This document shows positions 228-61,724 of a stretch of 64,000 nt of DNA, in pieces. The notes beneath the pieces were generated by a model. It was given only the letters and a program-made list of their open reading frames with translations, was not told where the DNA came from and did no database searches. The stretch covers positions 128,001 through 192,000 of the forward strand of contig CAWGRW010000010.1 of assembly GCA_963825135.1 (NCBI GenBank), read 5' to 3'. The position numbers and the translations under genes were made by a program. Numbering within the stretch: position 1 is the first letter of the stretch; the number at the start of each line of letters is the position of its first letter. The DNA comes from an uncultured bacterium. Its GTDB lineage: Bacteria > Desulfobacterota_D > UBA1144 > Nemesobacterales > UBA2774.

Positions 228-610
228 TCTTTGAATCTCCTCTCCCCCTGTGGGAGAGGATCAAGGTGAGGGGGTACCTCAATATTTTTGTCATTGCAAC
301 GGTTCTGATGAATAAGAAGAACCGGCCGCTGCTGGCTGATTGCATTCAAGTTGCTGCGCCCTGGGACGAACCTGCCAAATAAAATCTGCGAAGCAGCGCG
401 GCAATCTCGTCTTTTGAAATTAATTCCCCTCCCCCTCAATAGGAGGGGAGGGTCAAGGGTGGGGGTGTACCTCATTTTTGTCATTGCAACGGTTCTGATG
501 AATAAGAAGAACCGGTCGCTGCTGGCTGATTGCATTCAAGTTGCTGTGCCATGGGACGAACCTGCCAAATAAAATCCGCAAAGCAGCGCGGCAATCTATT
601 TTTTCTTATC
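228..610 (+). repeat. Tandem duplication (~190-bp period) of REP-like modules, each holding an element X insertion (299-383, 489-573)
   Basis: Near-identical gtcattgcaacggttctgatgaataagaagaaccgg...gcagcgcggcaatct units. Confidence 0.85.
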
Positions 611-741
611 TTCCCGACATTACAGAATTTGCGGCGGGTGAGCACCCGCATATTTATTCCCCTCCCCCCTTCCAAAGTGGGGGAGGGTCAGGGTGGGGGG
701 TTTACCTTATCACTCCTATCAAACAGAAAGTCTTTCTCTTT

Positions 742-866
742 CCCGACATTACAGAATTTGCGTTAAGAAAATCGATTGTACGAGCGTTAAGAATCTTACG
801 CGGGGTGGGGTTGAATTGGAAGATTTAGCGAGTACATGAGATTTTTAGCAAATTATGTAGTCGGAT
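742..866 (+). repeat. Element A hairpin repeat, copy 1 (class A)
   Basis: cccgacattacagaatttgcg...aattatgtagtcggat, followed by hairpin cttctttgt-atccag-acaaagaag. Confidence 0.95.
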
Positions 867-1264
867 GATTTTTGCTTCTTTGTATCCAGACAAAGAAGAA
901 AATAATATTGTCTTTGCTTTTCATAATCCAAACTACGTGTGTGATTTTTGCTTCTTTTCATCAAGGAAAAGAAGGATAAAAAAAACAGCCTTTCACCTTT
1001 CCTTTGTCTTTTCATTATCTTTTCATAGACCACTTTAGGTGCACGGTGTTTTCATAATCCACACTACGTGTGTCTTTTCATCGAGGAAGAGAAGAAATAA
1101 TATTCGCCATTTCTATGCCTTTATGAAATTGCAGCGCCCAGTCGCAACCCGTTAATCCACTGTCCCCCCGCTATCTTTTTCCCCCTCATGTGTTATATAA
1201 ATTCCCTTGCGCGGGCTGCGGATAAACGGGCTCGCGAATCAAACCGGCACTCTGCGGGGGACTG

Positions 1265-2623
1265 ATGGCACTCCTATCGAGGATTAGCAGGCGGCTCGAC
1301 AACCCGGCCGAGGACATCTCAGCCGGAAGCGGCGCTATCGGGTTCCTGGGCGCGTTCTCCATCGGCATCGGCGGCATAGTCGGCGGCGGGATATTCGCCA
1401 CTCTAGGCCTCGCCACGGTGGAGTCCAGGGGCGCGACGTTCCTCTCGTTCCTCATCGGCGGCATAGTCGCGCTTCTCACCGCGTACTCCTACGTAAAACT
1501 CTCCCTCGCCTACCCTAGCAAGGGCGGCACGGTCACCTTCCTTAACAAGGCGTTCGGCCCCGGGTTCGTCACGGGCTCGCTCAATACACTCCTCGTCATG
1601 AGCTACGTCGTGCTCCTCTCGGTCTACGCTTACGCATTCGCCAATTACGCGGCAGCCACGTTCTTCCCCCACGGCGAATACGCCCGCTGGCACAGGGTGC
1701 TCGTCTCGGCGGTCGTGGTCGCGCTCGCTCTGGTGAATTTCGCCGGACCCGCGCTCGTCGAAAGGTCTGAGGGGTTCTTCAACCTTAGCAAGCTCCTCAT
1801 ACTCTTCGTCTTCGTGGTGCTCGGTCTCCAGGGAAGCGGACTCACGTTCGAGCGCATGGCGCCCTCGGAATGGGTCCCGGCCCCGGAAATCGTTGCGGCC
1901 GGAATGCTGGTATTCCTGAGCTACGAGGGGTTCGAGCTCATCGCGAACGTCTCCGACCAGGTGAGGGACAGGGAGAGGAACCTGCCGCTCGCCTACTACG
2001 GCTCGGTCGCGACGGCGCTCGTGTTCTATGTCCTGATAATAGTCGTAGTGCTCGGACACATGAGCTTCAGCGCGGTCGCGGACTCCAGCAATTACACGCT
2101 CTCGGCGGCGGCCGAGCTGTTCATGGGGAGATCCGGGTTCGTGCTCCTCGCGATAGGGGCCATACTGGCGACCGCGTCCGCCATTAACGCCGGGCTATTC
2201 GGCGCGGCGAAGCTGCCGCTTATGCTCGCCAGGGTGAACGAGGCCCCGCCCATATACCTCCGCGAGTACAGGGGCAGGCATCCCGCGGGACTCGTCGTCA
2301 TCTCGATACTCGTCCTCCTGATAGTGAACTTCCTCGACCTCCACTCCCTCTCGGCCGCGGCGAGCACGGGGTTCATCGTCATATTCCTCACGGTCAATCT
2401 GGCGAACGCCAGGCTCGCCCGGGTGACGGGCGGCAGCAGGCGTGTATCGCTCATAGCCGCCGCGGTGTGTTTCGTCGCACTCGCGGTAATGATCGCGCAG
2501 ACGGCCTGGACCCCGGCCAACAGGAAGGACCTCTGGTTCATCGGCGGCCTCATGGTCCTCCCGCTAATCTACCAGACCGTATACCGCGGCGTCGGATACC
2601 TCCGCAGAACTCACGGCGGGTGA
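1265..2623 (+). CDS. APC-family amino acid permease
   Basis: 452 aa, many TM segments, GGIVGGGIF motif in TM1, YEGFE in TM6. Confidence 0.9.
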   Translation: MALLSRISRRLDNPAEDISAGSGAIGFLGAFSIGIGGIVGGGIFATLGLATVESRGATFLSFLIGGIVALLTAYSYVKLSLAYPSKGGTVTFLNKAFGPGFVTGSLNTLLVMSYVVLLSVYAYAFANYAAATFFPHGEYARWHRVLVSAVVVALALVNFAGPALVERSEGFFNLSKLLILFVFVVLGLQGSGLTFERMAPSEWVPAPEIVAAGMLVFLSYEGFELIANVSDQVRDRERNLPLAYYGSVATALVFYVLIIVVVLGHMSFSAVADSSNYTLSAAAELFMGRSGFVLLAIGAILATASAINAGLFGAAKLPLMLARVNEAPPIYLREYRGRHPAGLVVISILVLLIVNFLDLHSLSAAASTGFIVIFLTVNLANARLARVTGGSRRVSLIAAAVCFVALAVMIAQTAWTPANRKDLWFIGGLMVLPLIYQTVYRGVGYLRRTHGG

Positions 2624-2750
2624 GCACCCGCGGGCATACGATCTCCAACATCCCCCCTCAGCTCAACCCAACCCGTTCGTCCTGAGCGCACACGAAGTGT
2701 GCTGTCGAAGGGTTTCTTCCTTTCAATTTCCCCCTTAGAAAAGAGGGGAG

Positions 2751-2837
2751 ACAAATCCGAACGTGTGAGGAATTGGTTGGAGTTTGGTGATAGCAAAGAA
2801 GTCGCTTAATTGAAGCGGCAAATGTTATTAAAACCAA
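2751..2837 (+). mobile_element. Element X insertion in a ccccctt..aaggggga REP
   Basis: ac-aaatcc-gaacgtgtga-ggaatt-gg; flanks rejoin to the empty REP seen at ~15300. Confidence 0.7.
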
Positions 2838-2866
2838 ATTAAGGGGGATTTAGTTTTTTCTTCTTT

Positions 2867-3023
2867 CCCGACATTACAGAATTTGCGTCAAGCAAAATCG
2901 AGTTGTACGAGCGTTATGAAGTAGCGCAGCGCAATCTCGTCTTTCTGCAGACGTCGAGATTGTGGGGTTGAATTGGAAGATTTAGCGAGTACATGAGATT
3001 TTTAGCAAATTATGTAGTCGGAT
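2867..3023 (+). repeat. Element A copy 2 (loop region altered by a REP-like hairpin)
   Basis: Both arms present, internal caatctcg...cgagattg. Confidence 0.9.
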
Positions 3024-3307
3024 GATTTTTGCTTCTTTTCATCAAGGAAAAGAAGGATAAAAAAACGTCCTTTCACTTTTCATAGACCACTTTAGCGCAC
3101 GGTGTTTTCATCAACACGTGTGTCTTTTCTTTGCCTTTTCTTTCCGAAATCGAGAAGCCCGGACTCCATCCTCGAACCCATACATCGAGCGCCCGCAAAA
3201 AAAAACTCCCCGTCCCGCCGTTTCCGGCGGAGCGGGGAGCGCTCTTTTCAAAATAAATCAATCAGCTATTCACGGGCGGTATCCGCCCGCGCCCTGCGAG
3301 TCAACCC

Positions 3308-3826
3308 TTACTGCCCCTGTATGCAGTACGCGCGCACTTCGACCATGAGACAGTTGTCGGGAGACCCCGCGCCTTCCTTCCTGAAAACGGAGACCTTCCA
3401 TCCGTTCCATCCGCTCGGGTTCATGTTGTCGGCTACGCTCGATGTTACCCTCACCTCTTTCATGTCTATGGTCGAGTCCTCGGGCATGACCGTATAACCG
3501 CCGCCTATCGCGAAGGACCCGGCCGGACAGGTCGCCCTGAAATCGAGCGCCCTTCCCGCGAGCATGCTCACCTGCTGGCTCTCGGACACTTCCGACACAG
3601 AAACGCCGCTCGCCTTCACGGTCTCCACGTTGACGACCATGGGCTGGCACTTCTTCGAGCAGGAGATACCCTCCTGCGACGAGCACGGCGAAGCCGGGGC
3701 CGGAGCGACGGGTGCGGGCTGCGGATAAACGGGCTGCGCGAAAACGCTCCCCGTCCCGATCGCCAGTAAAAACGCGCCGAAAATCGCCCCAACGATTAAT
3801 TCGTTCAATGTTCTGCTGCTCTCCAT
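3308..3826 (-). CDS. Secreted Cys-containing hypothetical protein
   Basis: Signal peptide, ATCPAG...GGGY and AYC motifs, GGAGG RBS. Confidence 0.7.
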   Translation of the reverse strand: MESSRTLNELIVGAIFGAFLLAIGTGSVFAQPVYPQPAPVAPAPASPCSSQEGISCSKKCQPMVVNVETVKASGVSVSEVSESQQVSMLAGRALDFRATCPAGSFAIGGGYTVMPEDSTIDMKEVRVTSSVADNMNPSGWNGWKVSVFRKEGAGSPDNCLMVEVRAYCIQGQ

Positions 3827-4213
3827 GATTTAATTCCTCCCTTGAATGGATTTGATAACTCCCCTTGCTCGCACGATATTACTATATTATCCGGCGCGAT
3901 TCAACACTCCCCCGATAATCCCCTCCGCCCCCTGTTTTACCGCTCGCGGGCGCAGTAATTTTATATCTCAATACAGTATATCGAGTATATATTTACTGCC
4001 CGCGGCGCCGCGAGCGTCGAGCGGCCGCCGCCAAATAAAAAGGCCCCTTCCCCCGAAACGGGGGAAGAGGCCCAATTAATCTTTTTCCGGTCACCCTGAA
4101 CCGGTTTCAGGGTCTCTTTTTTATTCCGTCATTGCGAGCGAAGCGCGGCAATCTCATCTTTTCCTTTCTTAAACCCGTTCGCCCTGAGCTCGTCGAAGGG
4201 TCGAAGGATGTGT

Positions 4214-4774
4214 TTAAACACCCGCCGCAGATCTCTTCCGTCTCACCGCGAAGAACACGCCGATCAGACCAAGCCCGGCCGCAGCCGAGATCGTCCCCCA
4301 CTCGGAGAGCGTCGGTATCTTGTCCGCGGATATCCTGTTAACGAAGACGCACCCGGCTCCGGAAATTTGTCCGCTCGGCTCGACGCAATGGAAAGTTACG
4401 CTGTCCTCGGTCTTCTCAATATCGACGCCGACCCCCTCGAAACACCCAATCTCCTCAATCGTCCACCCTTCCTGCGGAAGCTCCGTGAAGCTTACAGTGC
4501 CCCCGGCGCCTACGAACACGAAATCGGGCGGAGACACTTGATTCGACGACACAGTGATTTCGGTTTCGACCCCGTTCACATTCTTGATGAATTCAAATGG
4601 TATCTCGGACTCAGTCTGGGGTATCTCTTTAAAAATGAAAAATCCGCAATCACCGTCCGGGATGGATGGAGCCCCCGCCTGCGCGGTCATGCCCGTAAAA
4701 CCGGAAAGCACCAAAGATAAAAGAAATAGACGTATAGCTCGTGTAACCATGGTCATCCTCCTACGGATATTCAC
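4214..4774 (-). CDS. IPTL-CTERM surface protein
   Basis: Signal peptide; C-terminal IPTLSEWG + TM helix + RRKR. Confidence 0.9.
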   Translation of the reverse strand: MNIRRRMTMVTRAIRLFLLSLVLSGFTGMTAQAGAPSIPDGDCGFFIFKEIPQTESEIPFEFIKNVNGVETEITVSSNQVSPPDFVFVGAGGTVSFTELPQEGWTIEEIGCFEGVGVDIEKTEDSVTFHCVEPSGQISGAGCVFVNRISADKIPTLSEWGTISAAAGLGLIGVFFAVRRKRSAAGV

Positions 4775-4899
4775 TGAGCTTATTGTACAACTTTATATGA
4801 ATTTTAACAATAGTTATAGAAGATACAGAGCCGCTTCGAGGTATACGCGAATCCCGGTCCCCCGGCCGCGCTTTCGCCTTCCGTTCGGGCGCGTGTATA

Positions 4900-5544
4900 A
4901 TGTCCCGGATGCGAAGCGCGTTCATATCTGCGGCCCTCGTTCTCGCTGCATTCGTCCTCACCGCCTCGGGCGGAGAACCCGCGGCGCGCCCGTCGGTTTC
5001 CCTCCTCCCCGGCTCCGATACGCCCCGGACGACGCAGTGCCCCGACGGCGCGGCGTATGTCTATAAGGGATATACTATATATGTAACGCAGAGCGCGGAG
5101 TCCCCCGGGCAAGGCATATCCGTCTACGAACCCCCGTCCCCTCCCGCCGATCCGTGCGGCGAGGGCAAGGGCGGCAGGTACTTCTCCATCCCGGCGGGCG
5201 AGTCGGGAGGGACGAACTTCTTCGCGGGCGTCTCGGGAGACTACCTCTTCATAGACCAGGGCACGGGTCCTTCTTTCCGGACGATCAGCATATTCGATAT
5301 GAAGGAGAAGACCTTCCCGCTCCTGGAGATCCGCTACTCGGACGCGAAGATAGAGAACGGAGCGCTGACGTATTACGAATCGAGGGACGAGGTCTCGGGC
5401 GTTCTGGCGAAGATACCCTGCCCGCAGGCGTCCGAATGGAAGAAACAGGGGCTCGATGTCGTATATGAGGAGAAAATGTCGTTCGACCTCAAAACGGGAA
5501 GGGAAATCTCGCTCCGCCAGTTCCGCTGCTCCCCCGCGCAGTAA
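4900..5544 (+). CDS. Secreted hypothetical protein, paralog of 24490..25155
   Basis: Signal peptide; shared GG.N.F.G..G.YLFID and IPCP.A..W.K.G motifs. Confidence 0.8.
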   Translation: MSRMRSAFISAALVLAAFVLTASGGEPAARPSVSLLPGSDTPRTTQCPDGAAYVYKGYTIYVTQSAESPGQGISVYEPPSPPADPCGEGKGGRYFSIPAGESGGTNFFAGVSGDYLFIDQGTGPSFRTISIFDMKEKTFPLLEIRYSDAKIENGALTYYESRDEVSGVLAKIPCPQASEWKKQGLDVVYEEKMSFDLKTGREISLRQFRCSPAQ

Positions 5545-5671
5545 CGCGCACGCTCAGCGTGTTCTACGATCCCTTCCAACTCCGCCGCCATTATCGATAA
5601 CCCAAGCCAAACCCGTTCGTGCTGAGCTAGTCGAAGCGTGTGAACTTATTTCCCTCCCCCCATGAGGGGGA

Positions 5672-5756
5672 ACGGATGCGAGCGTGCAAGCATTCGGTCG
5701 CCCTCCGCAAAACGCAAGCAAGCTACTGTGCCATGGGAAGGACATACTATATACAA
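5672..5756 (+). mobile_element. Element X insertion joining halves of two different REP families
   Basis: ac-ggatgc-gagcgtgcaa-gcattc-gg; left flank ccctcccc..gggga, right flank ctgcatagcagcgcggcaatctc. Confidence 0.7.
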
Positions 5757-5980
5757 ATCTGCATAGCAGCGCGGCAATCTCGTCTGTTCCTTTAATTCCC
5801 TCTCCCTCGCGGGGGAGAGGGACAGGGTGAGGGGGTACTTTATTATTCTTTTCCTTTCCCGACATTACAGAATTTGCGGCGGGCACACACAATGTGTGCT
5901 TTATGATCCTTCCGAAACTCTTACGCTCAAACCAGCAACGTAGCCAAACCCATTCGTGCTGAGCTTGTCGAAGCACGTTA

Positions 5981-6184
5981 CCGACATTACAGAATTTGTG
6001 TTAAGAAAATCGATTGTACGAGCGTTAAAAATCTTCCACGGGACGAATGCAAGCGCGCGCGCATTCGGACACCCTCTCCTATCCGCGCGACGTTAGTTAG
6101 CCACGGACATCGCTAAACTATCGCTCCGATGGGGCAGAATTGGAAGATTTAGCGAGTACATGAGATTTTTAGCAAATTATGTAG
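5981..6184 (+). repeat. Element A copy 3 with element X (6043-6128) in its apical loop
   Basis: Arms conserved; 86-nt insertion ac-gaatgc-aagcgcgcgc-gcattc-gg. Confidence 0.9.
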
Positions 6185-10988: not shown

Positions 10989-10989
10989 G

Positions 10990-12198: not shown

Positions 12199-12590
12199 GG
12201 CCCTGTATCAATGATACGAATGCGCCAGTCCGTTTCCTTCGCCGTTTCTGTACCCGATATCGCTAAAGTCTACCCTATAACACCCCGGCGATAAGGATAT
12301 TTTGATGCCCGGCACTCTCACCTCAGTCAAGCACGGCGGCGGGTGAGCACCCGCGGGCATATGCTCTCAATCATCTCCTTTCCTGTCATTTCGAGCTGAA
12401 GGCGAGAAATCTATCTTTTGCCTTTTCTTCCCCGACATTACAGAATTTGCGGCACACAATGTGTGCTCATATACGATCCTTCCGAAACTCCTACGCTCAA
12501 ACCAGCAACGTAGCCAAACCCCTTCACCCTGAGCGCACACGAAGTGTGCTGTCGAAGGGTCTTCCTTAATTCCTTCCCCCTGGAGGGGGG

Positions 12591-12752
12591 ACGGCTTCGA
12601 GCATGGGGGTTTCGACCTTACAGCGAGAAACCGGTCGCCCCGGAGAACCTTTGAGCTTGCCCTCAATGAGCATCTACTGAATCAAAGTTGTCGGCGGGTG
12701 AACCTTTACCCGCTTAGGTCATGTGATCCATGCTCTCCGATTTGTCGAGCTG
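12591..12752 (+). mobile_element. Longer (about double-length) element X-like insertion in a REP
   Basis: ac-ggcttc-expanded loop-gaaacc-gg-tcgc inside ccttccccc..gggggg / ggtgaggatggggg. Confidence 0.5.
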
Positions 12753-15457: not shown

Positions 15458-15651
15458 CCCGACATTACAGAATTTGCGTATAAGAAAATCGATTGTACGA
15501 GCGTTAAGAATCTTACGCGGGAGAATGCAAGCGAGGGATTGGAGCCTCTTATCCGCACGAGTTAGAGCCACGGACATCGCTATTATTGCCCGTGGGGTAT
15601 TGGAAGATTTAGCGAGTACATGAGATTTTTAGCACAATTCTGTAGTCGGAT
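15458..15651 (+). repeat. Element A copy 7 with a degenerate element X in its loop
   Basis: Insert shares gagccacggacatcgcta-like sequence with the copy 3 insert. Confidence 0.9.
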
Positions 15652-20245: not shown

Positions 20246-20342
20246 GCTTTATATTCCCTTAAACGCTCTTCTCCTTCCGGCTTCAGCAGCCTCTCAGCTG
20301 CGCGTAATTTACTCCTCCGCTATCAGCTTACGGCGTCCGACT

Positions 20343-20423
20343 GCTTACTTGCTCGCAGTCGTTTCACAGCGAAGAACACGCCGATCAGCACGAGCCCCGC
20401 CCCGGCCGCGATCATCCCCCACT
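20343..20423 (-). pseudogene. Isolated IPTL-CTERM tail remnant
   Basis: Encodes only WGMIAAGAGLVLIGVFFAVKRLRASK; upstream part replaced by a REP palindrome. Confidence 0.7.
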
Positions 20424-20554
20424 TTAGTTTTTGAATTTCCCCCTTTACAAAGGGGGATTCAGGGGGATTTGAATTTCTTTCTTTTAAGAATTAAACGCCC
20501 TCTTCCTTCCGGCTTAAGCAGCCTCTCGGCTGCGCGCAATTTACTCCTCCGCTA

Positions 20555-21088
20555 TCAGCTTACGGCGTCCGAAGGCTTACTTGCTCGCAGTCGTTTCGCC
20601 GCGAAGAACACGCCGACGATCATCAGCCCCGCACCGGCCGCGATCATCCCCCACTCCGAGAGAGTCGGGATGCTTCGTGACCCGGAACCTCCGACATTCG
20701 TAAACGTACAAGACCCTGTGCTGCCCGGAACCAGGCAGACGACTTGAACGGCGTTCTCGGTATCGAAGTTGAAGCCGAGACCCTCACCCGTGCAGGATAT
20801 GTCGTCGAGGTTCCAGCCTTCCAGCGGCAGCTCGACGATTACGGCGCTTGAAGAGAAATTCACCGCCGATGTTGCGCCATCCATAAGAGAACCCGGAATC
20901 GACGGGCCGTTGTCCAAGGTAACTTCAAAGGGGAATTCCGTGTCCCCCCCGCCCTGCGCAACCTTCGTGAACTCTATACGGCACTCCTGGGCCCTTGCGC
21001 CTTCAGGAGTCATAAAAACCACGGAGCATGCCGAAATAATTAGAAATAATAGAACAATACGGATGGAAAAACTTGAAATTTCCCTGAT
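20555..21088 (-). CDS. IPTL-CTERM surface protein (in-frame ATC after AGGAGG may be the start)
   Basis: IPTLSEWG tail; signal peptide extends in frame upstream of 21022. Confidence 0.85.
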   Translation of the reverse strand: MREISSFSIRIVLLFLIISACSVVFMTPEGARAQECRIEFTKVAQGGGDTEFPFEVTLDNGPSIPGSLMDGATSAVNFSSSAVIVELPLEGWNLDDISCTGEGLGFNFDTENAVQVVCLVPGSTGSCTFTNVGGSGSRSIPTLSEWGMIAAGAGLMIVGVFFAAKRLRASKPSDAVS

Positions 21089-21657: not shown

Positions 21658-21829
21658 TCAGCCCTCCTTGCGGGAATTGTTATTTGGAAATTATACCACC
21701 GCTCCTCTCCCGACCTACACTGTCATTGCAAGCTGCATAGCAGCGCGGCAATCTCGTCTTTCCTCTCCGACATTACAGAATTTGCGGCGGGTGAGCACCC
21801 GCAAATTAATTCCCCTCTCCCTTGAGGGA

Positions 21830-21918
21830 ACGGTTCAGAGCAAGCGCATGAACCGGTCGGAGTCACAACGAAACTGATGTAGCCAATTAACTCAGTCTCA
21901 ATGCAACTTAAACTCAAT
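21830..21918 (+). mobile_element. Element X insertion
   Basis: ac-ggttca-gagcaagcgca-tgaacc-gg-tcgg inside a ccctctcccttgaggg REP. Confidence 0.7.
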
Positions 21919-21975
21919 TGGGTATAGGGTGAGGGTGTACCTTATCACTACTATCAATCTAGAAGTCTTTTCTTC

Positions 21976-31103: not shown

Positions 31104-31310
31104 CCGACATTACAGAATTTGCGTTAAGAAAATCGATTGTACGAGCGTTAAGAATCTTCCACGGGACGATTCCGAACTAGTAAGGAATCGGACGCCCTAT
31201 CCTTATCAGCAACTTCGGAATTATAATCACGCATCATCAACCCACATCACCATGTGGGGTAGAATTGGAAGATTTAGCGAGTACATGAGATTTTTAGCAC
31301 AATTCTGTAG
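31104..31310 (+). repeat. Element A copy 14 with element X (31166-31253) in its loop
   Basis: 88-nt insertion ac-gattcc-gaactagtaa-ggaatc-gg at the same loop position as in copy 3. Confidence 0.9.
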
Positions 31311-35358: not shown

Positions 35359-35772
35359 ACCCGTTCGTCCTTAACCCGCCTGCCCTGAGCCCGTCGAAGG
35401 GTCGAAGGATTGAACGGGTCATACTCCCGTATGTACGCGATAACTTTCCGCCCTCTCAACAGCTCCCCCATCCTCTCCCGCCCCCTTCCCTATATATATA
35501 AGAGGTCCCGGCGCCCCGGCCCGGCCAGGGGACTGGCAGCCGGAGCATCTCCGGGACCGTCTCTGTAGGAGTGCAGCCCCGGCTTTCCCTTCGCACAAGA
35601 AGGAAGGATTGCAAGCGAGCACGCAATCGGCCGCTCTTGACTACATGCAAGCCCATTATTCACCGCGCGTCAGTCACGTATACGGCTGAGCGCAAGCAAG
35701 CCCGTTATTCATCGCGCAAGAGTCCCTAATATAGAATTGCGGGAAAGCCGGAGCGGTTGGCCTCAGCCCGGC

Positions 35773-36042: not shown

Positions 36043-36078
36043 GACCGCCTCCCATTAATTTATTTGTCATTTCGAACA

Positions 36079-36166
36079 ACGGTTCTGAACGTGTGCAAGA
36101 ACCGGACACCGATCACTGATTCCAAATAAATCCATTAGTCCTTGTATCTCATCAGCACAAACCAAA
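36079..36166 (+). mobile_element. Element X insertion in a gtcatttcga..gagaaatct REP
   Basis: ac-ggttct-gaacgtgtgca-agaacc-gg; body homologous to 51070-51156. Confidence 0.75.
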
Positions 36167-36234
36167 ACGTGAGAAATCTTTTTTTTTCTTCTTTTTTAAT
36201 CTGTCATTGCGAGCAACGCGAAGCAATCTCGCCT

Positions 36235-36957
36235 TCATCCTTTAATTCCCTCCTTAGAAAAAGGAGGGCTAGGGAGGATTTTCTTATCTATTTTTAAATC
36301 CCCCTCATCATCCCCCCCCTTGTCCAGCACCGCCCAGAACCCGCCGTCCTTTAGCCCGGCCACCACGTCCGGATGAGTCTCCTTCATCCTGAGCGTCTCT
36401 ATCAGCTCCACAGGGTTGAGCCCGTCCGCCGCGACGTACCCCGAAAACGTCTGCCCCCTCTTTTTGAGCTCCTTCTCGAACCTGAGAAGGTTCAGGTACC
36501 CGTACTTCCTCAAAGCCTCTTCCACGGGCCTGCTCTTCGCCCCCTCCACGTAAATCACCATCTTCGTCGATGCCGGGCTCACCCCGTGCGAAGCCGCGAA
36601 ATTCTCTATGCTCCCCCACTCCCCGATTATCTGCTGCGTCGTTATGTGCTCTATCCGTCCCATCAGTTGAATTCTCTCCTCTCCGTCGTTAGCAACTCCG
36701 ACCGATTCCTTGCTCGCTCGGAATCGTTGCTCTATCCGTCCCATCAATCCCATTCTCTCCTCTGTTTCATTAGCAATGGCGTCCGGTTCGTTTTGTTTTC
36801 TGCCGCCGCTGAGCCAGACATTTGCATTGATGTACCCAGCGTGGGGCGTCCGGCTGTTCGCCCGCTCACAACCGTTGCTCGCTCGCAACCGTTGCTCTAT
36901 CCGTCCCATCAGACTCCATTGACTCCTTATTAATTCCGTCATCATAATTTCCGTCAT
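36235..36957 (-). CDS. Cro/Ner-like early DNA-binding protein; N-terminal part built from tandem and nested element X copies (core may start at 36663)
   Basis: WGSIENFAASHGVSPAST HTH-like segment; LMGRIE repeated three times; first long ORF of the operon divergent from cI. Confidence 0.5.
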   Translation of the reverse strand: MTEIMMTELIRSQWSLMGRIEQRLRASNGCERANSRTPHAGYINANVWLSGGRKQNEPDAIANETEERMGLMGRIEQRFRASKESVGVANDGEERIQLMGRIEHITTQQIIGEWGSIENFAASHGVSPASTKMVIYVEGAKSRPVEEALRKYGYLNLLRFEKELKKRGQTFSGYVAADGLNPVELIETLRMKETHPDVVAGLKDGGFWAVLDKGGDDEGDLKIDKKILPSPPFSKEGIKG

Positions 36958-37306: not shown

Positions 37307-37951
37307 GTGGATCACAATAACGAAATCGGGCAGAGGCTCAAACTCGTAAGAGAGGCGCTCGACTTGACGCAGGAGGAATTCGGCAAGGGCATAGGCAAAT
37401 CCCTCAACACCATCCTCAGCTGGGAGTCCGGCCGCACGCGCCCGCCCGACCATTTCCTGAAGGTCATAGAGAAGATATACGGCATAAGCCCGAAGTGGCT
37501 ACGCCGCGGCCAGGGGGATATGTTCCTCCCTGATATATCGTCTGTCTTCGGCGGGGACAGCCTCGTCGAGATCAAGATATGGGAGCTGGCCGGCGCGGGG
37601 AACCCGCTCGCGTCTCCCGACGCCGAGCCTATAGAGCGCGTCACGCTGCCGTCGAAGCTGGTGCGGAACTACACGAACGGGTTCAGGGTCGAGGGGGACA
37701 GCATGTACCCCACCATCGTCAACGGCGCTTACGTGGGCTTTGACCCGAACGACAAGAAGATCGTGAGTAACGGGATATACTGCCTCCATCTGCCGTACGA
37801 GGGCTACGTCGTCAAGCGCGTCGAGATCAAGCCCAACGAGATCATCATCAAGAGCGATAACCAGATGGTCGACGACTACTCCGTCCCTCTCGACGAGCTC
37901 GACCGGAACCTCATCGTCGGCCGCGTGAGATGGGTGTTCCAGAATGTGTAA
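37307..37951 (+). CDS. CI/LexA-like repressor (XRE HTH + S24 peptidase)
   Basis: LTQEEFG...SWESG HTH, AG cleavage site, VEGDSM and VVKR catalytic motifs. Confidence 0.93.
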   Translation: MDHNNEIGQRLKLVREALDLTQEEFGKGIGKSLNTILSWESGRTRPPDHFLKVIEKIYGISPKWLRRGQGDMFLPDISSVFGGDSLVEIKIWELAGAGNPLASPDAEPIERVTLPSKLVRNYTNGFRVEGDSMYPTIVNGAYVGFDPNDKKIVSNGIYCLHLPYEGYVVKRVEIKPNEIIIKSDNQMVDDYSVPLDELDRNLIVGRVRWVFQNV

Positions 37952-38051: not shown

Positions 38052-38801
38052 ATGAGTGAGCTAAGCAAGATTGAATGGACAGATGCAACGTGGAATCCTG
38101 TAAGGGGCTGCAATAAAATAAGCCCCGGATGTAAATTCTGCTATGCAGAGGTTTTTGCGGAAAGATTTCGCGGCGTTCCCGGACATCCATACGAACAAGG
38201 TTTCGACCTAAGATTAGTTCCTGAAAGATTGGAAGAACCTCTAAAGTGGAAAAAACCGAGAATGATATTTGTAAACTCGATGAGTGACCTCTTTCATGAA
38301 AGAGTACCGAAGCAATATGTAAAAGAAGTATTCAAAGTTATGACAAAAGCTCATTGGCATACATTTCAAGTTCTCACAAAGAGATCTGAGCGCCTGTTGG
38401 AAATAAGTTTTGAGCTTGAGTGGCCTAGCAATGTATGGATGGGAGTAAGCATTGAATCCAGTAAATACACGTATAGATCAGATGATTTATCTAAAGTTCC
38501 AGCGGCAGTTCGTTTTCTAAGTGTTGAGCCTCTGTTAGAGATGATTCCCAACCTCCCCCTTAACAATATTAATTGGGTTATAGTTGGCGGTGAATCCGGA
38601 CGTAATGCAAGACATATGAGTTTAGAATGGGCACAATCGATAAAGAATCAATGTGAAAAAGCGGGCGTAGCTTTCTTTCTAAAACAATTAGGAGGAAGAA
38701 TAAACAAAAGAGGAGGCGACTTGGCACTCCTCGACGGTAGAACGTGGCGTGAATATCCAACCAGCAATCTTGATTCACGCAAGTTAGCTGTAGGAATTTA
38801 A
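38052..38801 (+). CDS. DUF5131 / phage Gp37-Gp68 family three-Cys (radical SAM-like) protein
   Basis: IEWTDATWNPVRGC...PGCKFCYAE, FVNSMSDLFH, WVIVGGESG, FFLKQLGG. Confidence 0.92.
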   Translation: MSELSKIEWTDATWNPVRGCNKISPGCKFCYAEVFAERFRGVPGHPYEQGFDLRLVPERLEEPLKWKKPRMIFVNSMSDLFHERVPKQYVKEVFKVMTKAHWHTFQVLTKRSERLLEISFELEWPSNVWMGVSIESSKYTYRSDDLSKVPAAVRFLSVEPLLEMIPNLPLNNINWVIVGGESGRNARHMSLEWAQSIKNQCEKAGVAFFLKQLGGRINKRGGDLALLDGRTWREYPTSNLDSRKLAVGI

Positions 38802-42054: not shown

Positions 42055-42088
42055 ATGAATAGTTCCCTCCCCCTCTATAGGAGGGGGA

Positions 42089-42176
42089 ACTGCCGCGAAC
42101 GAGTGAGCGGTAGGTCGCTCTTGCAACAAAGGCAGGAAAGGCGCTTAATTCCGATTCTTCGATGCCTAGGCCAAAA
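42089..42176 (+). mobile_element. Element X insertion
   Basis: ac-tgccgc-gaacgagtga-gcggta-gg-tcgc inside a ccctccccc REP. Confidence 0.7.
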
Positions 42177-42483
42177 TAGTTAAGGGTGGGGGTGTACCTT
42201 ATTATTTCTATATTATTTCTGTCATTCCCGACACCGATCGGGAATCTAGTCTTTTAAATCCCCCTAAATCCCCCTTTACAAAGGGGGAAAACAATATTTC
42301 CAGATTTTAATTCCCTCCTTTAGCAAAGGAGGGTTAGGGAGGATTTAGCTTTTTCTTATCCCCGCGACATTACAGAATTTGCGGCACACAATGTGTGCTC
42401 ATACTACGATCCTTCCGTAACTCCTCTGCCATCGCCGGGTAATTAGCCAAACCCGTTCGTGCTGAGCCAGTCGAAGCACGTTA

Positions 42484-42608: not shown

Positions 42609-42768
42609 GATTTTTGCTTCTTTTCATCAAGGAAAAGAAGGATAAATAAAACAGCCTTTCACCTTTCCTTTGTCTTTTCGAATGTTCACACTACGTGTGT
42701 GCTTCTTTTCATCAAGGAAAAGAAGAGAATAATATATTGCCTTCGTTTTATTTTAAATCCCCCTGAAT

Positions 42769-42853
42769 CTGGCTTAACAAAAATGTCGCTTCGATTAAGG
42801 AAATCCTTTGCCTTTAATCATCTCCGACCAATTCCTCACTTGCTCGGAATTGT
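42769..42853 (-). mobile_element. Element X insertion (minus strand)
   Basis: Reverse complement ac-aattcc-gagcaagtga-ggaatt-gg, close to 61640-61724. Confidence 0.75.
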
Positions 42854-42913
42854 TCCCCTTTACAAAGGGGGAAAACAATATTTCCAGTATTTAATTCCCT
42901 CCATGGAAAAAGA

Positions 42914-43002
42914 ACGGATGCGAACGGGCGAGCATTCGGACGCCCTATCTCAAAGAGCACAGAAGTAACTTAACTTCCAGCTCCATCCTTCTGAAGTCCA
43001 AA
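42914..43002 (+). mobile_element. Element X insertion
   Basis: ac-ggatgc-gaacgggcga-gcattc-gg-acgc inside a ttaattccctcc..gaggattt REP. Confidence 0.7.
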
Positions 43003-43049
43003 TAGGCTAGAGAGGATTTTATTTCCCCTCCCCCCGACGGGCACAGAAT

Positions 43050-51018: not shown

Positions 51019-51069
51019 GCACCCGCGGGCGTACGATCTCGAGCATCTCCTTTCCTGTCATTTCGAACA

Positions 51070-51156
51070 ACAGTTGCAAGCGTGCGCGCAACTGGTCGAC
51101 GTTGGTTGATTGCAAGTAACTCAAATTGACACCGTACACGATCTGCACAATCCAAA
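51070..51156 (+). mobile_element. Element X insertion in a gtcatttcga REP
   Basis: ac-agttgc-aagcgtgcgc-gcaact-gg. Confidence 0.75.
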
Positions 51157-51271
51157 ACGAGACATCTGTCTTTTGCCTTTGGTATTAATTCCCTCCTTAG
51201 AAAAAGGAGGGCAAGGGAGGATTGGGGTGTTACCTTCCGTTCGTACTGAATCCAGCGAAGCACTTTTCTTC

Positions 51272-55332: not shown

Positions 55333-55362
55333 CTATTCCCTCGGTTCATACGAGTCCGTCTC

Positions 55363-56799: not shown

Positions 56800-57398
56800 G
56801 CACACACACACGTAGTGTGTTTCTATGATCCTTCCCGACCCCCTCAGCTCAAACCGGCAATCATGGCGTTTTCGTATGTCGGCGGCGACACGCCGCCCCG
56901 TTCACCCCGAGCGCACACGTAGCGCGCTGTCGAAGGGTCTTCCTTAATTCCCTCCCCCTTGAGGGGAGAGGGTGAAGGGTGAGGGTGTACCTAGATATGT
57001 AAACCCGTTCACCCTGAGCCCGTCGAAGGGTCATCCTTAATTCCCTCCCCCTGGGGGGGAGGGTTAGGGTGGAGGTGTATTTCGAGCAGCGCGAGAAATT
57101 ATTTTTGCTTTTTTCACCGAGAAAAGAATTGGTTAAAAAAACGCTGTTTCACGTAACGATACCTTCGAACAGACCAATGTGAAAGGTTTTAGCATAAACA
57201 CAAGATTCTTAGGATACGGAGTCGGAGTTTTCGCCCCTTTTCATCAAGGAGGAGGATAAAAAAAGATCCGTGCACCGCTCTTCGACTTTGATTGTCATTG
57301 CGATAAATCACATTGCGCTTGGTCGCCCTGGAAGCCGCTACTACGTTAACGTCAGCATTGCAAGCTGCATAGCAGCGCGGCAATCTCGCCTTTTCTTT

Positions 57399-57586
57399 CC
57401 CGACATTACAGAATTTGCGTCACATTGTTTCCCTCCCCCTTCCCAAGGGGGAGGGTGTGGGTGGGGGTTTACCTTATCAGCCTATCAATCCAGAGAGTCT
57501 TTCTCTTTCCAGGCGTAAAGAAATCTTTGAGCAGTCCAATTGAAAGATTTTAGCTTAAACACAAGATTTTTAGCACAATTCTGTAG
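57399..57586 (+). repeat. Element A copy 20 (class B, interrupted by a REP); degenerate copy also at ~57150-57265
   Basis: Left arm at 57399, right part resumes ~57512. Confidence 0.8.
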
Positions 57587-57757
57587 AGTCTTTTCGGAAA
57601 CCACACTACGTGTGTGATTTTTGCTTCTTTTCATCAAGGAAAAGAAGGATAAATAAATGGTTTTTCACCTTTCCTTCGTCTTTTCCTATCTTCCCTTATC
57701 CTCTCGAAAGAGACAACGAAGGACCCGGCACTCCCGCCCGCCCCCCCGGATACGCCG

Positions 57758-58174
57758 CTACGGCAGCTGACGGTAAATCTCCTCCATATCGAACCAGACG
57801 TTCTCCCTCCTGATCTTCCCGTCCCCCGCAAACTCGATCACGTGCAGGAGCCTGAACTCGAGCGGACGCCCCCTGCCCTCAATGCCGAACGGACGCCCCG
57901 GCGCAGTGCCCGCCCAGAGGGACTCGTCGACGAGAAAATCCTTCCCGTAGAGCCGCTTCAGAGAGGTGACCTTCGAGACCTTGAGGTCCCGGAACGCGGC
58001 CTCGTAGAACCGCCCCGCCTCCTCTTTCCCGAACGTAGGCCCCGTGGGCGCGCCCACGACGTCGTGGACCACGTCCGGCGTGAGCGTGCGCAGCACCCCC
58101 GCCACGTCGTCACTCGCCTCGCAGTCGAAATGGTCGTCCAGTATCCTGTCCATCTGCTCGCGCGTGAGCGCCAT
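57758..58174 (-). CDS. SnoaL/NTF2-like ester cyclase family protein
   Basis: DVVHDVVG..G, FGIEGRGRPLEF, GKIRRENVWFD. Confidence 0.85.
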   Translation of the reverse strand: MALTREQMDRILDDHFDCEASDDVAGVLRTLTPDVVHDVVGAPTGPTFGKEEAGRFYEAAFRDLKVSKVTSLKRLYGKDFLVDESLWAGTAPGRPFGIEGRGRPLEFRLLHVIEFAGDGKIRRENVWFDMEEIYRQLP

Positions 58175-58364
58175 GCCGCACCTCCGTGCTCGTATATTAG
58201 ACGCGCTGACCCCGGCCGCGGATTTACGCGGAGAAAAATCCCGTCCCGCCCACGCGCCGCGGGCGTGAGGCGCGAACTCACAAACGCTCTCCTCCGCGTT
58301 TCACGTGAGTGAATGCCCAGCCCCATAGACACCCCGCTCATAAATATTGTATTGTAGTAACGTC

Positions 58365-59255
58365 ATGCCCGGCATCAGGGACGAGACATTCGGCGGCACG
58401 TTCCCCTTCGCTCCGCGCTTCTCGGGCGCGGGCGGATTCGATATGCATTACATAGACGAAGGAGAGGGCGAGCCCGTGCTCATGCTCCACGGAGACCCGA
58501 CTTGGGGTTATCTCTGGAGGGAGTTCATCCCGGCTCTATCGGCCGGGCGCCGCGTCATAGTCCCCGACCACATGGGCATGGGCAAATCGGACGCGCCCGA
58601 AGGGCCCTACCCTTACCGCCTCGGCCGCCACATAGACAACCTCGAAGCGCTCGTCCTCTCGCTCGGCCTCTCGGACATCACGCTCGTAGTCCACGACTGG
58701 GGCGGCCCCGTCGGCCTGGGCTTCGCCGTGAGACGCCCGGAGCTCATCAAACGCCTCGTGCTCACGAACACCTGGGCCTTCGCGCGCTGGCCCGGAGCGC
58801 CCTTCCCGAAGCTGGTCGAGATGATAAGGTCCCCGCGCGGGGAGCAGTTCGTGCTCGAGAAAAACGGCTACGTCGGCCGCGCGATCACGGGCACTGTGAA
58901 TTATCCGGAGAAGATAACCCCCGAGGTGATGGGCGCGTACACGGCGCCCTTCCCCACGCCCGAATCGAGGCGGGCGCTCCTCTGCTGGTCGCGAGACATC
59001 CCGGTCGACGAAGGGGATCCCTCGTGGGACGACATGGCGGCTATCGAGAAGAATCTCAAACTGTTCGAGAACATCCCCGTCCTCATAGTGTGGGGCATGC
59101 TCGACCCGATACTCCCGCCGGTCCTGCTCGAGCTCTGGAAGAGCGTCTATCCGCACGCACGCGCCGTGGAGATACCGGACGCCTCGCATTTTCTGCAGGA
59201 GGACGCCCCGGACGCAGTGCTCGGAGCGATAGAGGGGTTTTTGGAAGACACTTGA
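58365..59255 (+). CDS. Alpha/beta hydrolase, haloalkane dehalogenase/OleB-like
   Basis: HGDPTW, VHDWGG nucleophile elbow, HFLQED. Confidence 0.9.
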   Translation: MPGIRDETFGGTFPFAPRFSGAGGFDMHYIDEGEGEPVLMLHGDPTWGYLWREFIPALSAGRRVIVPDHMGMGKSDAPEGPYPYRLGRHIDNLEALVLSLGLSDITLVVHDWGGPVGLGFAVRRPELIKRLVLTNTWAFARWPGAPFPKLVEMIRSPRGEQFVLEKNGYVGRAITGTVNYPEKITPEVMGAYTAPFPTPESRRALLCWSRDIPVDEGDPSWDDMAAIEKNLKLFENIPVLIVWGMLDPILPPVLLELWKSVYPHARAVEIPDASHFLQEDAPDAVLGAIEGFLEDT

Positions 59256-59359
59256 TAACTCATATTCCACTTCACCGGAATACCCCCCCTTCCTTGCTTA
59301 TTCCCCCTCCCACGAACATAATATATCCCTACTCCCCCCGCCCGGTGTGAGGACCTCGG

Positions 59360-60058
59360 ATGCAACTAGAGAGAGCTATATTTCTTGCGGTATCGATATC
59401 CCTGGCCGCGTCGTCCTGCTCGCGCGACAAGAAGCCCGATTTCAGGGACGTCAGGTGGGGCATGTCTAAAGAAGAGGTCAGGAAGCGCGAGACCGCGGAG
59501 CTCATGAAAGAGGGCAACGAGGTGCTGATTTACAGGATCGGCGGCGGGCTGTCGACAGTTGAATCCGAGGGCACGGTAGAGGTCGAGCTCGACGCGAAGC
59601 CCGGGGACGGCAGCGCCCGGGAGAGCCCGCGCGTAACCATAGAGGTCGAAACGCCCGAGCCCGAATACGACGTCGTCTATGCGTTTAAGGACGGCAGGCT
59701 GGGCATGGCCGTGCTCCACCTCCGCGATTCGGCGCAGGACCCCTCCGAATATATCAGGCTCCTCAGGGAAAAGTCCGCGGAGATATCGAAGGAGACGGGC
59801 ACCCCCGCCTCGGGAGTCGCCGAGTACGGCGTGGGCGCGCCGAAGGACGACCCCTATTCCGCGCCCCGGGAGATTTGCGAGGGACAGTACTCCCTCAAAC
59901 ACGCCTGGCCGACTTTCAAAAACAGGACCGACGTCACCATAGAGCTCGACCAGAAAAAGTTTTCCCACGAGCCCGACTGCAACCTCTCCGTATTCTACGA
60001 GAGCGTGAAGTACCCGATCGACCCCGCCCTCTCCGGCGAGCTCCACGAAAAGCTCTAG
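59360..60058 (+). CDS. Lipoprotein, DFR..RWGM family
   Basis: ASSC lipobox-like; paralog of 60817..61485. Confidence 0.8.
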   Translation: MQLERAIFLAVSISLAASSCSRDKKPDFRDVRWGMSKEEVRKRETAELMKEGNEVLIYRIGGGLSTVESEGTVEVELDAKPGDGSARESPRVTIEVETPEPEYDVVYAFKDGRLGMAVLHLRDSAQDPSEYIRLLREKSAEISKETGTPASGVAEYGVGAPKDDPYSAPREICEGQYSLKHAWPTFKNRTDVTIELDQKKFSHEPDCNLSVFYESVKYPIDPALSGELHEKL

Positions 60059-60444
60059 CGCTGTGAAACGCAGCACGGCAAACTCGTCTTTCCTTCCCGA
60101 CATTACACAATTTGCGGCAGGCACACACAATGTGTGTCTCTACGATTCTTCCGTAACTCCTCAGCTCAACCAACAAGCGAAGCCAAACCCGTTCGTGCTG
60201 AGCTTGTCGAAGCACGTTACCGACATTACAGAATTTGCGGCGGGTAAGCACCCGCGGGCATACGATCTCTAACATCCGCCTCAGCTCAACCCAACCCGTT
60301 CACCCTGAGCGCACACGAAGTGTGCTGTCGAAGGGTCCTCCTTAATTCCCTCCCCCTCAATAGGAGGGGGGAGGGTCAAGGGTGGGGGTGTACCTTAATC
60401 ATTCTGTCATTGCGAGCAAAGCGAAGCAATCTCGCCTTTTCTTC

Positions 60445-60564
60445 CCCGACATTACAGAATTTGCGTCAAGAAAATCGCGTGTTTAAGCGTAAAGAAATCT
60501 TTGAGCAGTCCAATTGAAAGATTTTAGCTTAAACACAAGATTTTTAGCAAATTATGTAGTCGGA
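60445..60564 (+). repeat. Element A copy 21 (class B)
   Basis: Matches class B consensus. Confidence 0.92.
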
Positions 60565-60816
60565 ATGATTTTTGCTTCTTTTCATCAAGGAAAAGAAGAG
60601 ATCAATTTCGCCTTTGCCTTTGCTTTTTCTTTGTCTTTTCGAAAGACCACACTACGTGTGTTCATCAAGGAAAAGAAGGATTAATCAAATAGCCTTTCAC
60701 CTTTCTTCGTCATTGCGAGCCCTCCCGTTCGACCATCGGCACGCATCCCCCCTCTTGCGTCCCCCGCCCTTCCGGCACTATAATATCCGCAACACCCCGA
60801 GCGGGAGCGGAGACCC

Positions 60817-61485
60817 ATGAACATCAAATCACTTGCCGTAATCGCCTTATTATTGCTATCCCCGGCGGCCCTGTGCTTCGCGTCGGGCGAAAAGCCCGAC
60901 GTGAGGGACGTGAGGTGGGGCATGTCGAAGGAAGAGGTCATGAAGCACGAAAAGGCCGAGAAAATCAAGGAGACTGACAGCATACTCGTATACTTCATCA
61001 AAGGCGGGCCTACGCGCGAAATTATCCACACGCATCCCGACCTGGATGGGAAATCGATGGAGCTATCCATGGATATCGACGTACCCGACTACAACCTCGT
61101 CTACCTCTTCCCGGACGGCAAGCTCGGCATGGCCATTCTCCATATGGACAACCCCAAGGCGGACGCGAAGGATTATATCGACGAGTTCGACCGCCTGGCG
61201 GACAAGATAACCGATGAGACCGGGAAGGAGCCCGACGGACAGGCGAAATACGCCGAGAACGAGAGCGAGGACACCGTCTACGAGCACCCCGCGGAGATAT
61301 GCACGGGGAGGTACGGTTTAAGGTACATCTGGCCCGCGACAAACGACAGGACTAAAATCATGATCGAGCTCGACGACAGGAAGTCCGCCGACGACAAGTC
61401 CGAATGCACCCTGGCGATATTCTACGAGAGCGTCAAATTCCCCGTCGACCCGGCGTCTTTGGCGAAGATGCACGAAGCATTGTAA
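60817..61485 (+). CDS. Secreted protein, DFR..RWGM family
   Basis: KPDVRDVRWGMSKEEV, FYESVKFPVDP shared with 59360. Confidence 0.8.
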   Translation: MNIKSLAVIALLLLSPAALCFASGEKPDVRDVRWGMSKEEVMKHEKAEKIKETDSILVYFIKGGPTREIIHTHPDLDGKSMELSMDIDVPDYNLVYLFPDGKLGMAILHMDNPKADAKDYIDEFDRLADKITDETGKEPDGQAKYAENESEDTVYEHPAEICTGRYGLRYIWPATNDRTKIMIELDDRKSADDKSECTLAIFYESVKFPVDPASLAKMHEAL

Positions 61486-61639
61486 CGCGCGACACACAGA
61501 CACATAGTGTCATTTTACGATCCTTCCGTGACTCCTACGCTCAAACCAGCAACGAAGCCCAACCCGTTCGTCCTGAGCGCACACGAAGTGTGCTGTCGAA
61601 GGGTCTCTTCCCTTCAATTTCCCCCTTAGAAAAAGGGGA

Positions 61640-61724
61640 ACAATTTCGAACGAGTGAGGAATTGGTCGGAGATGATTAAATGCAAAGGACTTTCTTAATT
61701 GAAGTGACACTTTTGTCAAACCAG
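61640..61724 (+). mobile_element. Element X insertion
   Basis: ac-aatttc-gaacgagtga-ggaatt-gg-tcgg. Confidence 0.75.

Follow-up and report, generated by a model that had tools for sequence, protein, structure and literature searches.

A strand-specific hairpin head defines short units nested in the hairpin repeats of a Dadabacteria clade

The 64,000-nt window analyzed here (G000:C10:128001-192000, part of contig C10) contains copies of a short repeat, the X unit, that resides in the hairpins of other repeats. We found that the unit is defined by a 37-nt head, the sole part of it conserved in every class, whose hairpin is under selection for structure on one strand, and that this head is followed by a body of ~55 nt. 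X units occupy the loops or shoulders of at least seven types of hairpin repeat, the loop of their own head, and tRNA and open reading frame (ORF) ends. With moderate confidence, we read X as a lineage-specific, non-coding insertion module of a mosaic repeat system, of the kind represented by repetitive extragenic palindromes (REPs), bacterial interspersed mosaic elements (BIMEs) and neisserial intergenic mosaic elements (NIMEs), in one clade of Dadabacteria. An earlier note on this DNA had proposed an undescribed, tiny mobile element that is defined by structure and targets hairpins. The structural definition held, as the head combines a covarying stem with a conserved loop, and so did the residence in hairpins of other repeats (the H3 loop, the REP classes, element A, the TGAGCTTGTCGAA hairpin and the unit's own head), whereas a transposon moving independently is called into question by bodies that track the host, by composites that insert whole and by recombination between copies.

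The head begins with (G/C)AAC; a 6-bp stem whose sequence is free then encloses a loop, and GGWCGC(C) follows the return arm, with most heads continuing (T/A)CGC after the GG. All 13 single copies in the window show AC, a 6-nt arm, a loop of 10-11 nt, the complementary arm and GG, and the loops of the window's heads are of the type GARCNNGYRA, which can be read as a tandem G.A/A.G mismatch and an R:Y pair that also covaries, with an apex of CNNG or of 5 nt. The 16 copies and three variants listed previously all carry this head, and we found two further copies. The window belongs to a 3.13-Mb, 17-contig assembly (completeness 94%) with two large contigs, C9 and C10. The small contigs (C1-C8 and C11-C17) are 86-99% identical to parts of C9 or C10 and are probably strain variants that were binned together; small contigs that are allelic copies at 96-99% identity inflate raw repeat counts. 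Heads were searched for with a pattern in which the loop and flanks were fixed and both arms left free, pairing not being required. The genome yielded 98 heads with 36 distinct arm pairs, and in 91 of them all six stem positions pair (Watson-Crick or G.T), the remainder having five (five heads) or four (two heads) pairs. The same pattern found one match in the reversed genome, with two pairs, and when partner arms were shuffled 16.6 of 98 heads reached six pairs.

That the stem differs between copies while staying paired, as had been claimed, was confirmed in an alignment of 64 heads (A3), comprising 14 from the window and 50 from related metagenome-assembled genomes (MAGs), the latter being every pattern match in Dadabacteria-type records among the first 80 loci, whatever its pairing. 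The 6-bp stem is 98.1% paired in A3 and changes on both sides occur at all six of its pairs; the covariation score was reached by none of 500 column shuffles, and shifting the partners by 1-3 columns lowered pairing to 42.9% of cells or less. Loop positions 3 and 8 also covary (GC 40, GU 15, AU 5), and positions 1-2 and 9-10 form GA...GA, the tandem G.A/A.G arrangement. GA...GA and one pair are also retained by the loop variants of 11 nt (GATGAATAAGA, GACGAATAGGA and GACAAATCGGA). The strand on which the hairpin is maintained can be read from the wobble pairs, because a G.T pair on one strand is an A.C mismatch on the other. Among the 81 heads found on C9 and C10 by the strict pattern (486 cells), 458 cells are Watson-Crick, 20 are G.T, four are A.C and four are other mismatches, and helices 2 and 3 of A3 have 45 GU cells vs. 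at most nine "other" cells. The excess of G.T over A.C indicates that one strand is selected, the strand as written, and a hairpin kept on one strand acts as a single-stranded nucleic acid. Beyond the head, RNAalifold found no conserved structure in 23 aligned class-II units, and a scan of the X units found no recurrent promoter or terminator signal.

The orientation of the units follows the chromosome and not the genes. Relative to flanking ORFs, the four possible arrangements were counted 14, 18, 18, and 16 times, figures that rest on crude ORF calls, and heads inside ORFs are sense in eight cases and antisense in seven. On C10, 30 heads lie on the plus strand and six on the minus strand, co-oriented with the array of H3 repeats. 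Copies crowd into C10 and both ends of C9, with three only between 0.7 and 2.2 Mb. The GC skew of C9 lies below zero over 0-1.26 Mb, above zero over 1.3-2.2 Mb and below zero once more over 2.3-2.7 Mb, and the repeat-rich variable region makes one skew compartment of this contig about twice as large as the other.

Unit ends were set from the host flanks on both sides for the 13 single complete units of the window. All 13 measure 87-92 nt including the AAC, somewhat longer than the ~81-89 nt given before, and a nested inner unit measures 87 nt. This length is held even though the body classes cannot be aligned with one another. REP-hosted bodies have the common motif GGCTGATTGCAA...CCAAAAY, bodies in element A read CAACAAAG...TTAACTTCCGGCT...GCCAAAATA with hardly a gap across genomes, H3-hosted bodies read GGACRCCCT..CCTAT, and other genera have a further class. 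The suggested ending near YCAAA therefore applies in part, as CCAAA(A/T) ends the units hosted by REPs and element A but not those hosted by H3.

The cleanest host is H3, which exceeds 150 bp in length and is repeated 84 times, almost exclusively on the plus strand of C10 and of the C9 ends. An empty site has the sequence CGGG-NN-GGGG and a filled one CGG(G)-unit-TGGGG, the two differing by the unit alone, without target duplication. Two classes of REP, GTCATTTC-GA-RC-N3/4-GY-GA-GAAATC and GTCATTGC-GA-GC-AAC/GAA-GC-GA-A-GCAATC, follow the same hairpin grammar as the X head (stem-GA...GA-stem). In the first class the junction is at the apex and in the second the unit follows the 5' arm, at the 5' shoulder; neither H3 nor REP insertions are flanked by direct repeats. 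Element A comprises three types of C-arm/G-arm/G-arm repeat that hold the unit between the G-arms or in the loop, and in a hairpin with a TGAGCTTGTCGAA loop the unit lies at the border of loop and 3' arm. When one X unit is nested in the head of another, it always follows loop base 8, and the host head loses roughly 2-4 bases of its loop end and 3' arm. Counted on C9 and C10 by the host's right-arm motif, filled vs. empty sites number 10 vs. 56 for H3 and 10 vs. 54, 3 vs. 23, and 7 vs. 18 for the three types of element A, with some of the "empty" motif matches being chance matches. The units most likely entered single-stranded parts of other hairpins, and the direction of change between empty and filled sites would be insertion rather than deletion. 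The idea that removal of the unit restores an empty site was upheld for H3, but elsewhere host bases were often lost.

A further site of X units is the border of the acceptor and T arms of tRNA genes, where the units are antisense to the tRNA. In this setting the expected lack of target duplication, which is true of H3 and REP hosts, breaks down: units at tRNA-Glu, tRNA-Arg, a further tRNA and one ORF start are flanked by target copies of 9-17 nt. At tRNA-Glu, at least one X unit was present in all nine readable genomes of the genus, placed between the tRNA end and a CACACA-N-TGTGTG hairpin and flanked by antisense copies of the tRNA end; these copies are 9 nt long in the present genome, against 13-14 nt in the majority of relatives. 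The number of units at this locus ranges from one to about four among the nine genomes, the heads are wholly different from one genome to the next, and the bodies have visibly diverged further than the flanking genes (82-89% identical). The 64-kb window itself contains no tRNA or tmRNA gene. X units also make up gene ends. The first 17 nt of an ORF recur behind each of three heads at 36665-36893(-), and all three are read in frame. ORF 20555-21022(-) ends ...SIPTLSEWGMIAAGAGLMIVGVFFAAKR-LRASKPSDAVS*, its last 11 codons and stop being supplied by an X unit, and some other units lie directly after stop codons. Since heads end ORFs and adjoin tRNA genes, X shapes gene ends in a large variable region. 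Similar unit-derived ORF tails were seen on C9 near 662.6, 665.3, and 2203.4 kb; like ORF 20555-21022(-), these ORFs have an IPTL-CTERM-type sorting tail (...IPTLSEWG...GVFFAAKR) that runs into the unit head.

At C9:1215196, a composite of element A plus X (~140 nt) is present in this genome and absent at the same site in four related genomes that were aligned, and a gap of about 10-12 nt was seen there in six relatives; the host-plus-unit composite inserts as one piece. One H3 body occurs with two heads in this genome (GATTCC/GAACTAGCGA and GAATGC/AAGCGAGCGC), and another body carries GAATGC and GATTCC heads in G077 and G075. The same body with different heads points to recombination.

The head pattern was found in 21 of 120 genomes of the phylum set and the reversed pattern in none. 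Matches by genus include nine of nine genomes of g1, seven of seven of g5, the one genome of g6 and two of ten of g3 (one match each), as well as the single genome of g22, which belongs to another family and has two head matches; genera g2, g4 and g7 lack the unit. In a scan of one genome per species of bacteria and archaea, 55 of the 83 matches listed (80 loci) had all six pairs, and the MAGs with such matches listed, all labeled Dadabacteria, Thermodesulfobacteriota, delta proteobacterium or Spirochaetia, also carry the same host repeats. Clearly unrelated taxa among the matches listed had 0-4 pairs. Across genera the head is conserved and the bodies diverge. The claim that X is undescribed was upheld with respect to Rfam: no match to Rfam 15 reached the gathering threshold and of four weak matches at E<=1 none was on a unit, leading us to reject a known RNA family, and a literature search, which was not exhaustive, found no publication on genomic repeats of Dadabacteria.

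Our reading of these results is that the head would serve as a single-stranded hairpin, more likely single-stranded DNA (ssDNA) than RNA; ssDNA is favored because the units have no orientation bias relative to ORFs and are antisense to tRNAs. The head may be the handle for a putative trans-acting protein that would insert the unit where hairpins, among them stem-GA...GA-stem hairpins and the unit's own head, expose single-stranded loops or stem shoulders. The composite of host and unit could then spread as one piece, and heads would be exchanged between copies by recombination. A bolder version of this reading, in which the head is the handle of an undescribed single-strand integration system that lacks the known transposase families and sets ~89-nt units into any exposed hairpin loop, including its own, without duplication in loops and with long target repeats at the stem borders of tRNAs, strikes us as doubtful.

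Candidates for such a protein were sought in the genome by profile searches. Y1_Tnp (PF01797), the domain of the Y1 transposases that include REP-associated tyrosine transposases (RAYTs), had no match, with positive controls; the IS110 DEDD, RVT_1, Cas1, TnpB-type, and Resolvase domains likewise had none. The Y2/IS91 domains (PF04986 and PF14319) had no match either, and the control genomes were likewise without a match. The only DDE gene family seen was one IS3-type rve gene. Tyrosine recombinases are present, in the form of XerD, XerC, one phage-type integrase and a 285-residue Xer-like protein, and integrase fragments adjoin a tRNA-Arg(TCT) gene that carries X units; no recombinase exceeded the cut-offs for an integron integrase. 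Among 33 genomes of the family, Y1 genes occur in five (three of nine in g1 and none of seven in g5, though g5 is unit-rich) and the Xer-like protein in 29, including genera without the unit. We consequently rejected a RAYT or IS200 driver, which is absent and does not co-occur with the units, the Xer-like third recombinase, which is present irrespective of the unit, and a casposon-like origin by Cas1, entertained for 14-nt duplications, given that the genome has no Cas1 match. The longer autonomous version that had been envisaged beside a transposase, reverse transcriptase or nuclease gene was not found in the profile searches or among the best 80 of 140 self-BLAST rows of >=500 bp, a few of which were also checked against Pfam; besides allelic contigs, these 80 rows contain GroEL, EF-Tu and one IS3 family. 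Within the tests made, the units did not prove to be the end of a known insertion sequence (IS) family.

The missing Y1, IS110, RVT_1, Cas1, TnpB-type, and Resolvase matches and the distribution of Y1 genes across the family weigh against an active insertion module, and several other observations do so too. The class of the body sequence tracks the type of host, and with composites inserting whole, the unit is not clearly jumping alone; most copies could be accounted for by a few ancient insertions and composites that then spread, with no need for the unit to keep moving by itself. There was no unit-sized indel between allelic contigs in 18 aligned pairs and no clean unit-only polymorphism between genomes, where the sites examined were whole composites or too rearranged to read. 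Junctions also vary. A consistent rejoining position had been expected, but the unit lies at the apex, the 5' shoulder or the border of loop and 3' arm depending on the host, often with a loss of ~1-5 host bases, and such variable junctions and lost bases are unlike the work of a precise transposase. Folded as ssDNA, the whole unit with its host does no better than shuffles (z about 0). Finally, nearly all copies lie in one GC-skew compartment, and a replication-strand bias is therefore inseparable from the orientation of the array.

These points bear on the alternatives to differing degrees. A self-contained miniature transposon with fixed ends, moved alone at present by a dedicated hairpin-recognizing enzyme, would account for the near-constant length of 87-92 nt, the conserved 5' head, filled and empty H3 sites that differ by the unit alone, nesting that always follows loop base 8 of another head, and a filled fraction that is alike (about 12-28%) across several unrelated host repeats. 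We nevertheless regard it as unlikely, as no 3' end is common to all host classes, the body class follows the host with composites inserting whole, the allelic contigs show no unit-sized polymorphism, and neither an autonomous copy nor a candidate enzyme was found. The target-end copies of 9-17 nt at tRNA genes and the ORF start are what integrase-type integration leaves, and they raise the question of whether a site-specific recombinase uses the head as an att-like or dRS3-like site, with units and neighboring cassettes exchanged or stacked and the rows at tRNA genes formed by repeated integration into the tRNA 3' end. The one to about four units at tRNA-Glu, the integrase fragments beside the unit-carrying tRNA-Arg(TCT) and the position of the window within an array of 84 H3 repeats in one orientation, with small accessory genes between them, are in keeping with this, and neisserial NIME arrays are a described parallel (PMC1797815). 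Such a site is quite improbable, however, when H3 and REP hosts have no direct repeats, the AAC has GG(T/A) in place of a matching GTT, the recombinases present are limited to XerC, XerD, the phage-type integrase and the Xer-like protein, without an integron integrase over the cut-off, and the Xer-like gene occurs in 29 of 33 family genomes, including genera that lack the unit.

A structured RNA module with a host function, either a cis-acting stability or processing element or a small RNA, that spread passively with the host repeats is similarly improbable in our view. G.U wobble tolerated on one strand, the constant length, heads conserved across genera beside diverging bodies, and units directly after stop codons all agree with an RNA, but the even split of orientations relative to neighboring ORFs (14, 18, 18, and 16), the antisense placement behind tRNA genes, the lack of an Rfam match, the absence of conserved structure beyond the head in the 23 class-II units and the want of a recurrent promoter or terminator signal do not. 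The insertion module of a mosaic repeat system, our preferred reading, leaves the clade with about a hundred strand-specific, covarying, fixed-length modules nested in hairpins and no known enzyme detected. A protein partner, should there be one, would move or copy DNA by way of hairpin structure in a manner not known before; should there be none, X would clearly exemplify repeats that spread through nothing but recombination.

Among known systems, the family of REPs, BIMEs and REP doublets forming hairpins (REPINs) is similar to X in consisting of short, intergenic, lineage-restricted hairpin repeats, tens to hundreds per genome, in mosaics with other motifs. The hairpin is retained rather than the sequence, and X has the imperfect-palindrome feature. 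REPs carry a 5' tag that is a GTAG-type tetranucleotide, and REPINs are inverted doublets. In X the tag is (G/C)AAC, the loop is conserved and the stem free, and the heads are single, mostly on one strand and joined to a ~55-nt body, not inverted doublets. To our knowledge, a mechanism for REP-type hairpin repeats has so far been offered only in cases where a RAYT or IS200-type enzyme occurs; the genome with X lacks Y1/RAYT genes, and Y1 genes do not track the unit. The REPs, REPINs and BIMEs associated with RAYTs are those of Enterobacteria and Pseudomonas, the literature on which includes PMC3337134 and PMC3116915. In Neisseria, NIMEs join a short hairpin repeat, dRS3 (20 bp, ATTCCC-N8-GGGAAT, flanking RS segments), to variable segments of 50-150 bp from many families, and the arrays are dynamic with a proposed role as recombinase sites (PMC1797815). 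X resembles NIMEs in combining a hairpin-forming repeat with variable segments, but in dRS3 the arms are conserved and the center free, whereas in X the arms are free and the center conserved. There is no sequence likeness between the two, and no IS110/Piv-type gene was found in the genome with X.

The 178-bp repeats at tyrT/tyrV of E. coli are arranged in rows that follow tRNA genes, and every repeat terminates with a copy of the tRNA 3' end. The units at tRNA-Glu, tRNA-Arg and the further tRNA are of this type and the window copies are not; X differs in its covarying hairpin and in also occurring in at least seven other hairpin repeats and at ORF ends. Elements of the IS200/IS605 group transpose as a single strand, are hairpin-guided and strand-specific, make no target duplication, and have subterminal hairpins and a Y1 TnpA. 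A miniature of this group (a palindrome-associated transposable element) would share with X the hairpin-guided single-strand logic and the strand specificity. Duplications are lacking in the H3 and REP hosts of X, while repeats of 9-17 nt occur at its tRNA and ORF ends. X has its conserved hairpin at the 5' end only, no fixed target tetranucleotide was seen, and no TnpA or TnpB gene was found. The attC sites of integrons are strand-specific hairpins with paired AAC...GTT cores. The X head is likewise strand-specific, has a conserved AAC and is found in a co-oriented array of small accessory genes; at 37 nt it is shorter than any attC, GG(T/A) stands where the GTT would be (only 21 of 62 heads have A:U at column pair 20-49, and position 48 is G), and no IntI was found. 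A crossover between AAC cores (AAC x AAC) fits some REP sites and fails at element A and H3 junctions, and we rejected it. Classical miniature inverted-repeat transposable elements moved by DDE enzymes differ from X, whose ends are not inverted repeats and whose filled H3 sites have no duplication. Rickettsia palindromic elements are small repeats tolerated inside ORFs, comparable in features alone with the three in-frame X units at an ORF start and the units that end IPTL-CTERM-type ORFs; X copies are mostly intergenic.

The copies in the window can be arranged by host, and lie on the plus strand unless indicated otherwise. REP hosts hold a 90-nt unit at 298..387, with the head AAC GGTTCT GATGAATAAGA AGAACC GG in a GTCATTGC...GCGGCAATC REP; its near-identical 90-nt twin at 488..577, in a second REP; a 91-nt unit at 36078..36168 that substitutes exactly the 4-nt apex of a GTCATTTCGAAC-xxxx-GTGAGAAATC REP; and, downstream of a histidine-kinase gene, a 90-nt unit at 51069..51158 in a REP of the GTCATTTC type. 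The 90-nt unit at 5671..5760 has an element A G-arm as its left flank and a REP right arm as its right flank. Element A of type 1 holds units of 91 nt at 21829..21919 and 42088..42178, type 2 a 92-nt unit at 42913..43004, and type 3 an 88-nt unit at 2751..2838, in a CCCCC..GGGG / TTAAGGGGGATTT repeat and with one stem mismatch, as well as 87-nt units at 42768..42854(-) and 61639..61725. Element A itself, found at window positions 240-282, 425-470, 660-700, and many more, consists of a C-arm, loop, G-arm, spacer and second G-arm such as AGGGTGGGGG, and has at least three sequence types.

Units in H3 loops lie at 6043..6129 (87 nt), where the comparison of filled and empty copies is clean and without target duplication, and at 31166..31254 (89 nt), with a body of another subfamily than that at 6043; a degenerate remnant that has lost the 3' arm of its head lies within an H3 repeat at 15521..15592. 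The H3 array spans 778-62024 in the window, and beyond it C10:69-222 kb and C9:0-194 kb and 2455-2711 kb. H3 reads GTACGAGCGTTAAGAATCTT...GGAAGATTTAGCGAGTACATGAGATTTTTAGC, followed by one to three GCTTCTTTTCATCAAGGAAAAGAAG hairpins, and copies are 0.4-6 kb apart, separating small, mostly unannotatable genes in an order unlike that of related genomes. In layout this resembles a cassette array of very large size. An integron reading of the array was rejected, as no IntI was found and H3 alone folds no better than shuffles.

The remaining copies are atypical or adjoin coding sequence. A variant at 12590..12697 has ~18 extra nt in its head loop, and a variant head without the AAC lies at 35606..35720 within a CCGGCTTTCCC...GGGAAAGCCGG hairpin. 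The two copies additional to the earlier list are at 20275..20363(-), with its head at 20334-20362 and abutting a coding-like ...GVFFAVKR tail, and at 20507..20595(-), with its head at 20566-20594 and containing the end of ORF 20555-21022(-); the 3' ends of these two copies and both variants are approximate. Behind a short 64-nt unit at 36665..36728(-) comes a 17-nt copy of the beginning of the ORF, GATGGGACGGATAGAGC. Next to it, an outer unit at 36746..36893(-), whose head loop is broken after loop base 8 by a nested 87-nt unit (36790..36876, minus strand), is likewise followed by a 17-nt copy of the ORF start. The ORF concerned, 36235-36957(-), is small (MGRIEHITTQQIIGEWGS...) and has no Pfam match; three units are in frame at its start and each insertion restores its initial 17 nt. 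Back to back with this ORF, in a stretch of lower G+C content (44.7%), are a gene for a LexA-like helix-turn-helix/S24 repressor (37307-37951) and a DUF5131 gene (38052-38801). At a second locus, on C9 near 2459.1 kb, an X unit follows ...GACGGATAGA.

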